64,000 nt of DNA from NCBI GenBank assembly GCA_000442015.1, contig KE561324.1, forward strand, positions 1 through 64,000. The letters run 5' to 3'. This DNA comes from Rozella allomycis CSF55 (Eukaryota). Each line of letters starts with the position of its first letter. Within the stretch, counting starts at the first letter, position 1. Under the pieces are notes generated by a model. It was given only the letters and a program-made list of their open reading frames with translations, had not been told where the DNA came from and searched no databases. Below are positions 1,203 to 25,437 of this stretch, in pieces. The position numbers were made by a program, and so were the translations under genes.

Positions 1203-2758
1203 ATGAGTTCTGGAGACGTATATTTACGAGAACAATTTGAAAAAACAATCAAAGAACTTAAAAACATTAAACAGAAACTTGAATATACCGAAAAAGAAAA
1301 TCAACAATTAAAGAGATCCATTTTCGAATTGTCGTCTAGAATATCTAATTCTGTGATAAGAAGAAATCCTTTTATATTTGAGCCGGCAGAACCAGTTGTT
1401 GCTTCAGATGAAATTAAACCCAACAATGGAAAATCCTCGTCTCAATTCAGTGATAGCCGTCAATTTTTCAACAAATGTGACTTAAAAGTAATTCAAAGTA
1501 TATATTTGCCTAGGTAATGACTTTATTACAACCGGAATGCACAGGGACACTCCGGGGCTGTTTACACAGTAAAATTCAGCAATTGCGGTAGGTATCTGGC
1601 CAGCGGATCGTTTGACAAAACCATTCGAATATGGGATTTAGGAACTCAAAAAGAAGTACAACTTGTTATTGATAAGAAATAGATGGGGGTTTTGAATGGA
1701 CACACACTGAATGTGTCTGACATAGAATGGGGTCAGAGTCCAAATGAATTGCTCTCAGGCGGCTATGACTGCTCTTGTAAGGTAAGGAACTAATTTAAAT
1801 ATTTTCAGATATGGAATATTGAATACAAGAATGTGATCAATGATTTTCATACAGAAGGATTAAACCAGTGTGTGTCCTTTCATTCAGAGAATTTGGTTTT
1901 ATGTGGCACAAGTAGAAAAAAGATATGCGTATTTGACAAGAGACAAGCAAACCACGTGCTAGAATTTAAAAATAACTCAATTGTTAATTCAATGTAAGGA
2001 TTTAAGGTTTAGATCCTAGTTATGCTTACCGGGATGGATCACATATAGTGAGTGGTGACTCTTCTGGTTATTTAAAAACTTGGGATTTTAGAAGTTTGGG
2101 TACTATTTTTGCCACTTTGAATGAACCTTCGGGAAAACCTATTTCTCACATATCCACTTGCCTCAAAAATCCATGTATTTTTGAACTTTACTTCCTAATT
2201 TAGATCAGACTGAAGAGCCTCGATATATGGCTGTTAATAGTTATGATAATGGTACTAGGAATATATCTTGTTAATTAGTGTTAAGAGTATATGATCGCGG
2301 GCTAATACCTCCAAAAACTAAAAGAACTTTAATTCACTCACTTAGGAATCATAAAAATAAAAATTGGCCAATTAAAAGCTCATTTTTTCAAGGCATAGAA
2401 AGTGATAGCGTCAATTGTTTCTTTAATTAGGTGAGACTGACACAAAAGAGTCAGATAAAGGGGACACAGAGCTTTCATCAATTAATCATACGTAGTCTAT
2501 TAATTAAGTCTGATAAAGTTCCAATATATTCCTTGCTACAGGAAGCGTAGATCCGTACATATATGTCTATGATGTAAGCGGCCAACCAGTAAGATCTATT
2601 TTAGTATATATTAGGGGTCGGGTTCTTTATTGCAAAGATTAGAAGGGCATTCTGATAAAGTGTATTCCGTATGCTTTCATCCCAGTGAGCCCATTTTGGC
2701 AAGTGGATCTTCGGATAATTTGATTAAAGTATGGGTCCCAAAAACTAGAGTGGAATAA
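1203..2758 (+). CDS. Coiled-coil + WD40-repeat protein (multi-intron)
   Basis: WD repeats GHSGAVYTVKFSNCGRYLASGSFDKTIRIWD and GHSDKVYSVCFHPSEPILASGSSDNLIKVW after removing 26-31 nt introns. Confidence 0.85.
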
Positions 2759-21124: not shown

Positions 21125-22787
21125 ATGAAGTCATTTACATTGGAAGAAGTTTCCAAACATAAAAGTGCAAATGACATTTGGATTGCAATTAATGGAAATG
21201 TTTATGATGTTACCAATTGGCTTATAGATCATCCTGGAGGAAGAGCTATTTTATTGAAACATGGAGGAACTGATGCATCAGAGCAATTTGCAAAGTTTCA
21301 TAATCCAAATATACTAAATTCAATAGGATCAAAGTTTCTCATTGGGAAATTGGGACTTCCACAGGCTATTGACAAAGAAGTAAAACCAAAGGAAGCGTTG
21401 AGCTTTGGTGATGGCGTCGCATTTGGCGACCCCCAATGGTAATGAAAAAGACGGTTTACAAATAGGTATCAAGGAGTGAAAAGCCCATATTATGATGAAA
21501 GCCATTATAGATTGAGAAATTGTATTAGAGAATTTGTTGACAAAGAAATCATGCCATTTGCTCATGAATGGAACGAACAGGGTTATTTACCAAAAGATAT
21601 TTATTTGAAATTCGGAAAGGCAGGTTATTTAGCTTGTATTTCCCCAATACCTGAAAAATATTTAAAGTACCCCATGCCATGTGGATTAACGTTAAAAACA
21701 TTTGATCCATTTCACGAATTAGTGTTGGCGGATGAGCTATGCAGATGTGGATCTGGTGGTGTAGTTTGGGGGTTGATTGGAGGTAAAATTGTTAATTAAT
21801 CAAAACATGGTAATTTTATAGGACTTCCACCAATATTGCATTTTGGGTCAGAAGAATTAAAACAAAAAGTTATTCCAGAATGCGTTTCTGGAGAAAAGAT
21901 TTGCTGCCTTTGCATCACTGAGCCTTACGCGGGGAGTGACGTTGCAAATATTAAGACTACAGCAACGTTAACTCCAGATGGAGAGCATTTTATTGTCAAT
22001 GGCGAAAAGAAATGGATTACGAACGGAATGTTTGCTGACGTAATTATTTTGGCTGATGGATTTAGTTTTTCACTGTTGCTGTTCGAACTGGGGGTGAAGG
22101 CGCCGGTGGGATTTCTCTTTTATTGCTTGAACGCTCAATGCCTGGATTAACAACGAGAAAAATCAACACGAGTGGCCAATGGTGTTCTGGCACTGCCTAC
22201 ATTACATTTGAAAATGTTAAAGTTCCAAAATCAAATATTATTGGGCAAATCAATCAAGGGTTTAAAGTAAAGCATATATTTATCATTAAAAGGTTATAAT
22301 GTACAACTTTAATCATGAGAGAGTTGGAATGGCGATTCAATGTGTTCGATTCTCTCGTGTGTGTTATGAAGAAGCGTTCAAGTATTCTCTAAAAAGAAAG
22401 ACGTTTGGGAAACTTTTAATTCAACACCCAGTCATTCGTCAAAAATTAGCAAACATGATAAGGCAAATTGAGTCATTGGCTGTTTGGACTGAATCCATTG
22501 TGTATCAAACTAAAACTTTATCAAAGAAAGAACAGAATCTTCTACTTGGAGGTCCCACGGCTTTATTAAAAGCTCATTCTTCATTTGTGTTTGAATATTG
22601 CGCTAGGGAAGCAGCCCAAATATTTGGTGGGTTAGCATTCACCCGTGGTGGTCAAGCAGAAAAAGTTGAAAGATTGTACCGTGATGTTAGGGCTTATGCA
22701 ATTCCAGGTGGCTCTGAAGAAATTATGTTGGATTTGGGAGCAAAGCAAGCTATTAAAATGTCTCAATTGAATGGTGCAAAACTTTAA
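21125..22787 (+). CDS. Cytochrome b5 - acyl-CoA dehydrogenase fusion
   Basis: b5 motif NVYDVTNWLIDHPGG; ACAD motifs CITEPYAGSDVA, NGEKKWITNG, FNHER, AIPGGSEEIM; 4 introns. Confidence 0.92.
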
Positions 22788-24173: not shown

Positions 24174-25437
24174 TTATTTAGTTTGCTCAATTAATTTTAA
24201 AAAGCTATCAATGTTTGAATTCCATCTTTTGATGACAGCGTCATGTTTGAACAAAACCAGCATGTTTTGTCTGTCTATTGATGCATTAATACTTGCGGAC
24301 TTTATCATTGACGCCAAAAGCCTTTCAGTCTAAAAATAATGAGTACAACATATTACTGTAATTGAATCACATCCTATAAGACGAGCCAGTGCATCAATGA
24401 ATATGTTCTCATAATATTTTGAAATTACTTTGATATTATGAGAGAAGATTGTTGAAGAAAGAACAGTCAATCCATTCTCTAAAATAGCAGTCTGGTGTGG
24501 CTTGAGTTGTAAAGAGAACGAGTCCATCGTCTCCTTGGGCAATAGCTTTTCATTATATCTAGAAATATAGAAAGGCAAAAATTACACTCTTTCAAGAATG
24601 GTAAAATACTTTGAATTAGATACTCTAATGTCTTTCATTAGCATGTCCAGCATTTGAGACCTTTGTTGGCCCACATCCCCGAGAATAGTACAAACAATTG
24701 CTTGATCTAAAGAATAGTCTTTTTCAGCATCATCAATCACGAGTTTTGATAATTCCAGGTACTTATGCGCTGCGTCAATAAACTTTCTCTTGGAATCCAA
24801 AATTCTAACTTGACAAACCATTTTATGGCAAAAACAATATTTACTTTGTATTTTAACAAAAGAAGTGAATCTTGACAATTTGCTATTATTAATGAAGTCC
24901 TATTGATATGACTTTCTGCATTAATATAATCTTCATCCTCTAGAAATAATTGGGCGCTTTTAACATGGATAGAAATCTTTTCTTCATCGGGCATTAAACT
25001 TTTAATTAGTTAAAGTAATTTATACTTGTATCCCGAGCTTTGCACCAAACTCTCCAAAATCCTAGCAGATTCCGTCCATTTTTCCTGTTCTTCCAATAGA
25101 CTTGCAATCATAAACTTTGCTTTTATTATCAATTAGATTTACGTATTTAAATTACCTGTTGTTCAAATGACAAGGAACGCTCCATCTGTACGGTCAACGT
25201 TGACTTTAACACACCCAACTGCCAAGACTTATTAGGATTTTGCGAAATTTTTTCAAAGCAAGACTCGAGAACTTTTTGAGCAAAGGAAACATGAAAAACA
25301 TCTGACGTAAAAAAGCTGAAAAAATCAGGTGCATGCCTTTCATCGCTTGCTACATACTTTTCAAATAAATCATTAATTCTAATTAGACGATCGTTTTCAG
25401 TTGGATAATTAAAGGTTTCTTCAAAATCATGTTGCAT
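24174..25437 (-). CDS. CSN4: COP9 signalosome subunit 4
   Basis: SFEQQ, LFLEDED..NAE.HINR, RILDSKRKFIDAA, GQQRSQML, LKPHQ, HNI..ISKYYENI; 5 introns, two of them GT-TG. Confidence 0.88.

Follow-up and report, generated by a model that had tools for sequence, protein, structure and literature searches.

How is a sequence of 57 nucleotides (nt) removed from a transcript when nearly all the other introns predicted around it measure 26-31 nt? The question is raised by a gene of Rozella allomycis CSF55; Rozella is a cryptomycotan fungus, parasite of the water mould Allomyces. The DNA under analysis, hereafter the window, is the whole stretch of 64,000 nt from position 1 to position 64,000 of contig KE561324.1, which has a guanine plus cytosine (GC) content of about 34%, makes use of the standard stop codons, and contains densely packed genes interrupted by tiny introns. 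The gene in question, located at 1203-2758 (+), is conserved and encodes a protein with a coiled coil and WD40 repeats; its first two exons are separated by the 57 nt at 1488-1544. It is probable that this sequence consists of two complete spliceosomal micro-introns, of 26 and 31 nt, that abut each other and would be removed by two successive reactions. The features on which this interpretation depends are the following:

1203..1487, + strand: exon 1, 95 codons, open from the ATG and ending in ...NKCDLK
1488..1513, + strand: putative micro-intron A, 26 nt, GTAATT...CCTAG, GTAATTCAAAGTATATATTTGCCTAG
1512..1516, + strand: AG/GTA junction (CCTAG/GTAATG), with a zero-length exon between 1513 and 1514
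1514..1544, + strand: putative micro-intron B, 31 nt, GTAATG...CACAG, GTAATGACTTTATTACAACCGGAATGCACAG
1545..1655, + strand: exon 2, first WD40 blade, GHSGAVYTVKFSNCGRYLASGSFDKTIRIWDLGTQKE, recognised through PF00400 and the alignment with the orthologues, and missing from the deposited protein

This subdivision of the 57 nt, with the two halves joined at AG/GT, had been proposed in a previous reading based on the letters alone (the sequence-only reading), and both its coordinates and its letters were confirmed.

The amount of sequence that must leave the transcript can be evaluated by comparing the gene with its deposited product. The translation of exon 1 is 100% identical to the first 95 residues of a deposited Rozella allomycis CSF55 protein of 389 amino acids, the only one retrieved in a search with this translation and here referred to as P0001 (source label "WD40 repeat-like protein [Rozella allomycis CSF55]"). 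P0001 joins CDLK straight to MGVLNGH, through a 195-nt intron (1488-1682) that skips exon 2. Our model of the gene contains instead ten introns, including the 26 and 31 nt at 1488-1544, and the others are 26-29 nt long; the choice of 26 + 31 nt made by the gene finder at this position stems from its length prior and was not considered as evidence. The remaining features of the gene model are:

1656..1682, + strand: ordinary 27-nt intron
1683..2758, + strand: exons 3-10, with the stop codon TAA at 2756-2758
1782-1808, 1994-2019, 2175-2203, 2252-2278, 2402-2430, 2492-2518 and 2589-2614, + strand: further introns of 26-29 nt

Without exon 2, the ten-exon model translates to P0001 exactly (389/389 residues), so that the sole disagreement with the deposited model lies at 1488-1682; with exon 2 restored, the product is 426 amino acids long. 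The 29-nt intron at 2402-2430 (+) opens with GTG instead of GTA (GTGATAGCG...), and P0001 shares this junction.

The translation of exon 2 is, on its own, recognised as a WD40 repeat (PF00400, E 7.2e-12, 45.7 bits). A search with P0001 retrieved clear orthologues in chytrids, Glomeromycota, Mucoromycota and Blastocladiomycota, with 31-50% identity and a query coverage that mostly exceeds 90%. Seven of them were aligned with P0001 and with the translation of exon 2. In this alignment, the N-terminal coiled coil encoded by exon 1 is also kept in the orthologues, all seven of which run without gaps across the junction (...(F)xLKx(E/D)LKGHxGAVYAxQFSPCG..LASGSFDKTVRIWD...), their consensus being FxLKx(E/D)LKGHxGAVYAxQFSPCGxxLASGSFDKTVRIWDAxxxQKExxxLKxHTLNVSD. 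P0001 shows a gap of 38 columns, which is filled by the exon 2 translation, and at both joints, CDLK/GHSGAVY and QKE/MGVLNGH, not one residue is missing or extra in comparison with the orthologues. The propeller thus numbers seven blades with exon 2 and six without it. When all 57 nt are taken out, ...NKCDLK is joined in frame to GHSGAVYTVKF... in an open frame; when the 57 nt are kept, or only 26 or only 31 nt are taken out, a premature stop codon is encountered within 9 to 25 codons in each case, and the removal of 26 + 26 nt, for which the second half would have to end at its TG at +26, also leads to a premature stop. Two statements of the sequence-only reading, namely that the removal of 57 nt gives CDLK/GHSGAV and that the removal of either half alone breaks the frame, are therefore borne out by the open frame, the premature stops and the colinearity of the seven orthologues. 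Since all seven are colinear and exon 2 corresponds to the missing first blade, we conclude that exactly 57 nt are removed, and the deposited model is most likely wrong at this point or, at best, describes an isoform in which exon 2 is skipped. The colinearity of the protein at the junction also eliminates the possibility that the zero-length exon was left by the loss of a coding mini-exon.

According to the deposited model, exon 2 would be unused, CDLK would be joined to MGVLNGH by removal of the 195-nt intron, and the 57-nt piece would be meaningless. This is the public annotation, the same join was obtained in the first run of our gene finder, which over-penalised introns, and none of the best 120 of the 155 database matches (top identity 68%) is a protein carrying exon 2. 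Against these points stand the in-frame WD40 repeat, which is flanked by canonical splice sites and matches the first blade of all seven orthologues residue for residue, the six-bladed propeller that its omission would produce, and the length of 195 nt, about six times that of any other supported intron of the window; a genuine skipping of exon 2 as the gene's normal state thus appears highly improbable. Still less credence can be given to an artefactual origin of the 57 nt in assembly or sequencing, such as a spurious insertion or a duplicated intron. Small assembly errors are possible in this contig, given that the frame of a gene near 49460-49199 apparently has to be corrected by 1 nt; nevertheless, neither half repeats the other, each of them has its own complete splice sites, and their total is exactly what orthology demands. 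The tandem duplication of one intron was likewise discarded as a source of the pair, no similarity between the halves and no direct-repeat family joining them having been found.

Once the length to be removed is fixed, the question becomes whether the two halves look like introns. They were scored against a reference set of 131 introns of 26-31 nt of the window, from which both halves had been left out. Both open with GTAAT and close with AG, and both lengths fall inside the range of the window introns, 26 nt being the commonest value. Half A scores at the 86th percentile of the reference introns, a score matched by only 0.16% of 1871 GT..AG decoys; its AG (1512-1513), located at exactly +26, is the first AG at or beyond +26, and the sole earlier one ends at +11. 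For half B, the only AG counted from 1514 lies at +31 (1543-1544), and its 5' site falls at the 36th-40th percentile. Inside the sequence to be removed, therefore, a 3' site directly abuts a 5' site (AG/GT) and both are in the range of real sites (19th percentile for the internal 3' site and 37th for the internal 5' site), as in a zero-nucleotide exon. Moreover, the in silico removal of half A leaves the 5' site TTAAAA/GTAATG, whose intron part is at the 36th-37th percentile, so that the first ligation would leave the upstream exon with a usable 5' site at its end. The arrangement is not that of a stwintron in the strict sense, both units having intact GTA...AG ends and neither being nested in a signal of the other. 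The ends of the whole 57 nt (GTAATT at 1488 and CACAG at 1544) are those of a single U2-type intron, whereas the length departs from that of 135 of the 137 other introns predicted by our own gene models, which measure 26-31 nt, and an AG at +26 offers a competing 3' site. U12-type introns have an extended conserved 5' site and a branch-site motif; neither is visible here, the 5' ends being GTAATT and GTAATG, and this class was discarded.

In order to assess how often such an arrangement would arise by chance, 200,000 random 57-nt introns of intron-like composition were generated. An AG/GT with both halves of 26-31 nt was present in 1.08% of them, an AG/GTA with the same property in 0.31%, and in 0.24% both internal sites reached at least the 5th percentile of real sites. 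The window contains 30 abutting pairs of GT...AG units that obey the length and AG rules described below (in five of them, both units open with GTA), and only the pair at 1488-1544 joins long open frames (117 and 45 codons). Furthermore, 27 exons open with GT immediately downstream of an intron, and in none of them is a 5' site that reaches the 20th percentile accompanied by an AG at 26-31 nt, which indicates that ordinary exons do not present this configuration to the spliceosome. A hairpin shortening the effective length of the intron was rejected by comparison with shuffled sequences, the predicted RNA fold being no better than theirs (z-score +0.37 when the 57 nt are folded alone and -0.70 when their flanks are included), and a search of the insert against Rfam, with E up to 1, returned zero matches.

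The sequence-only reading had described the 57 nt as about twice the usual intron size. The lengths of the other introns of the gene (26-29 nt) agree with this description, and so does an intron census of the window, performed with a Viterbi gene finder of our own that was iteratively trained on the 64,000 nt and that combines a three-periodic Markov coding model, splice-site matrices and a length prior; counts of GT..AG candidates bridging open reading frames were too noisy for this purpose. When only GT-AG introns were allowed, 139 introns were predicted: 37 of 26 nt, 34 of 27 nt, 22 of 28 nt, 29 of 29 nt, seven of 30 nt and four of 31 nt, the remaining ones being single cases of 39, 41, 56, 90, 236 and 262 nt. 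When any 3' dinucleotide was allowed (with a cost of 6 bits for non-AG ends and the last two matrix columns kept neutral), 137 of 139 introns fell between 26 and 31 nt (39, 36, 22, 29, 7 and 4, respectively, from 26 to 31 nt), leaving only two longer predictions, of 236 and 262 nt. The predicted introns begin with GTA (99% A at position 3), have an A at position 4 in 71% of cases, end in (T/A)AG preceded by an A-rich stretch, and have a GC content of 25%.

The two longer predictions are, on inspection of the models, modelling failures. In the case of the 236-nt prediction (45857-45622, -), the upstream frame hits a stop nine codons into the piece, and the prediction probably marks the boundary of two genes that the model fused. 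Within the 262-nt prediction (49460-49199, -), which belongs to a gene for an LRR protein, a stretch that codes for LRR stays open and a canonical 26-nt intron is present, with frames one base apart near a run of A; the frame problem could come from an error of sequencing, from a pseudogene or from a splice form that was not recognised. As judged by these models, every intron of the window that stands up to inspection measures 31 nt or less. When the length prior was made flat and the site models neutral, one prediction was obtained at 24 nt, none at 25 nt and 26 at 26 nt; the floor of 26 nt thus seems robust, while the ceiling of 31 nt depends more on the model.

The choice of the 3' site within these introns also appears to follow the distance from the 5' site. 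An unused AG ending at +26 or beyond is found in only two of the 131 reference introns, versus 8.1 expected from composition; counted per position, the figure is two of 208 slots versus 7.7 expected (Poisson P 0.018). AGs ending between +20 and +25 are little depleted (23 versus 29 expected). The two exceptions are 29-nt introns, 60045-60017 (-) and 8468-8440 (-), in which an AG is also present at +26 (CAAGTAG and CAAGAAG, respectively); they offer in-frame, NAGNAG-like alternatives of 26 versus 29 nt, one codon apart, between which the sequence cannot pick an acceptor.

Where no AG lies in this range, a different dinucleotide seems to be taken. Four non-AG introns were chosen in the run that allowed any 3' dinucleotide; all four end in TG, measure 26-27 nt and replace the GT-AG predictions of 39, 41, 56 and 90 nt. 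These candidate GT...TG introns, as called by the gene finder, are:

24844-24819, - strand: 26 nt, in a CSN4-like gene
25155-25130, - strand: the second such intron of the CSN4-like gene
44531-44505, - strand
21783-21809, + strand: in an acyl-CoA dehydrogenase gene

TG makes up only about 5% of the interior dinucleotides, so that four TG ends out of four are very unlikely by chance, and none of the four introns has its next AG before +36, the AGs passed over in favour of TG being located at +36 to +47. In the CSN4-like gene (-), the alignment with the CSN4 chain 9is6_D reaches residue 180 with the exon that ends at 24845 and resumes at residue 181 with the first residue of the stretch beginning at 24818; this stretch also aligns with VCYARVLDYRRKF of human CSN4. 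Since residues 180 and 181 adjoin across it, the limits of this predicted intron can be regarded as settled by homology: 24844-24819, 26 nt, GTAAAT...AAAATG, with the AG at +36 left unused. For 21783-21809, the four additional residues, NFIG, are aligned with homologues in some of the matches, and the assignment as a TG intron is suggestive. When an AG follows within a few bases, TG is passed over (6/208 slots, two of them fixed by frame). The simplest summary of these models would be that the 3' site is the first AG located 26-31 nt from the 5' site or, failing that, a TG at +26/27.

A set of findings weighs against two-step removal and against the length rule that would impose it. The spliceosomes of other organisms are not known to have an upper length limit. 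The intron statistics rest on ab initio models, and the trained length prior favours 26-31 nt; in the flat-prior run, the 116 predictions included 84 of 26-31 nt, six shorter and 26 longer, although this run is clearly less accurate, to the point of getting the WD40 gene wrong. As an intron, half B has a poor score (4th percentile overall, with the region of its 3' site at the 3rd percentile), and it is rich in GC (39%, 96th percentile). If TG acceptors are real, a TG at 1538-1539, at +26 of half B, is a candidate competitor of its acceptor, and splicing at this TG would take out 52 nt and shift the frame. Homology fixes only one of the four TG introns, a search of the PDB for 25155-25130 having returned nothing usable, and the abutting pair is represented by one instance only in the 64 kilobases. 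As far as half B is concerned, its acceptor is required under any model, given that in the alignment the orthologues fix the junction 1544/1545.

According to the principal competitor that these points favour, the 57 nt would be an ordinary intron that leaves the transcript in a single reaction, with the 5' site at 1488, a branch point in the second half and the 3' site at 1544, the AG/GTA being a matter of chance or a relic. The general freedom of spliceosomes from an upper limit, the 26 of 116 flat-prior predictions above 31 nt (by which the ceiling is partly model-dependent) and the low score of half B as a stand-alone intron all speak for it. On the other hand, chance would produce the arrangement in just 0.3-1.1% of cases, and a single reaction would have to skip the AG at +26, which 129-131 of the 131 reference introns do not do. 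It would also require a branch point at a distance of about 45-50 nt from the 5' site. For neither of these requirements does the window offer any sign that Rozella is capable of it. In addition, no intron above 31 nt survives inspection, the CSN4-like gene apparently uses a TG at +26 in preference to an AG only 10 nt further on, and no hairpin shortens the distance. On balance, we consider a single 57-nt intron unlikely, and the removal of two abutting micro-introns remains the probable explanation. The sequence-only reading had attributed the arrangement to a length-limited spliceosome; the anatomy on which it relied holds, while the limit itself is supported indirectly, by the 26-nt floor, the lack of any credible intron above 31 nt, the use of AG and the TG ends at +26.

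The sequence shows the anatomy of the pair, the requirement that exactly 57 nt be removed and the statistics of intron length and splice sites in the window; from these we infer a length rule of the spliceosome and two steps of removal, which might proceed as follows. The 3' splice site would be taken in a narrow interval, approximately 26-31 nt past the 5' splice site; AG would be the favoured end, and TG would serve where it is lacking. At 1488, the 5' site would pair with the AG at 1512-1513 and half A would be removed, probably first, since it is transcribed first, yielding an intermediate with the junction 1487>1514. This ligation would set exon 1 directly before GTAATG (1514), and AAA/GTAATG would represent a normal 5' site; the new site would then pair with the first AG in its own interval (1543-1544), and half B would be removed. 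The reverse order, B before A, would pass through the intermediate 1513>1545 and give the same messenger RNA (mRNA). The steps would have to be sequential, since the two units are presumably too close to each other for two spliceosomes at once. In its most general form, the proposal is that the Rozella spliceosome acts as a ruler, for which the 3' site must lie 26-31 nt away, so that longer inserts can exist only as chains of units and recursion is obligatory; we hold the chances for and against this generalisation to be about even.

Recursive splicing through zero-nucleotide exons (ratchet points) has been reported in long introns of Drosophila and vertebrates (bioRxiv 10.1101/006163; Duff 2015 and Sibley 2015, as cited in bioRxiv 10.1101/224170). 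Like the Rozella junction, ratchet points place an AG/GTA in the intervening sequence, the first ligation re-forms a 5' site, and the mRNA keeps no trace of the process. They differ in that they are embedded in introns of tens of kilobases, while here the sequence measures 57 nt and each unit is a minimal intron; in that the presumed reason here is an upper length limit; and in that their intermediates have been shown, while those of Rozella are only proposed. The sequence-only reading held that most known recursive sites belong to very long introns of animals; this needs a qualification, since a recursive event with a zero-nucleotide exon is also described for a fungal intron of 375 nt. This intron, in the BOT1 gene of Cryptococcus neoformans, is split into 210 + 165 nt at a pivot formed by an exon of zero nucleotides (bioRxiv 10.1101/224170). 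Unlike the Rozella case, it was shown by spliceosome profiling (junctions, branches and 3' ends), its units are 5-8 times longer, and the intron lengths of C. neoformans cover a broad range, so that no length limit is implied.

Fungal stwintrons are also complex intervening sequences excised by consecutive U2-type reactions, and a "stwintron sensu lato" with abutting donors is described in Lipomyces (PMC7138796); their proposed origin is the appearance of new splice sites inside an existing intron (PMC7138796). Two consecutive reactions of this type are what we propose for Rozella. In a stwintron, however, a donor, branch or acceptor element of the external intron is split by the internal one and becomes functional only after the first excision, whereas the Rozella units are intact and lie side by side. 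Length-constrained micro-introns have been reported in Paramecium, Nyctotherus, myxobolid myxozoans and Dicyema (PMC5014332; PMC13644364), those of dicyemids and myxozoans being 22-27 nt long (PMC13644364; PMC6736024). The likeness consists in a narrow length peak below 30 nt, in signals close to GTA...AG and in the suggestion that size acts as a recognition signal; the available portions of these papers describe no abutting pairs, and Rozella, a fungus, is absent from the lineages that they list. As for Rozella itself, two introns of the S23 gene are referred to as "short (~30 nt)" (PMC6349667), and the literature search found no paper giving the intron length distribution of Rozella, with the proviso that supplementary tables lay outside the search and could have escaped it. 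No paper describing abutting micro-introns was found in the literature search. Recursion via a zero-length exon is thus a known process, of which the Rozella case would be the smallest by far.

The distribution of the intron position was examined by a metagenome scan for relatives of the gene, which detected six loci, four of which (L001-L004, contigs carrying orthologues, GC content 46-69%) cover the junction. All four run through LK/GH without an intron. The position may, on these sequences, be specific to the Rozella lineage or have been lost elsewhere; the result of the scan says nothing about the origin of the pair.

A first consequence concerns gene annotation. A gene finder that does not admit an exon of zero length or TG as an acceptor will miss or shorten exons of the Rozella genome, and P0001 appears to have lost a whole propeller blade through such limits.

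A second consequence concerns the recognition of introns. The paper on the shortest animal introns (2026) states that the recognition and splicing of such introns need further study (PMC13644364). For the recognition of ultra-short introns, a tandem pair with a zero-length exon represents a natural experiment. If the spliceosome of Rozella really worked as a ruler, the 57 nt would be smaller than any other sequence known to be spliced recursively, and for the first time recursion would be imposed by an upper length limit and not by great length; quantised intron lengths would be expected genome-wide (26-31, 52-62 and 78-93 nt), with an A or T followed by G/GTA at the joints. If the two steps do take place, the machinery would read the length of the intron, and a hard limit would make evolution build longer inserts from minimal units; the apparent GT...TG introns at +26/27 point in the same direction, i.e., towards a reading of length.

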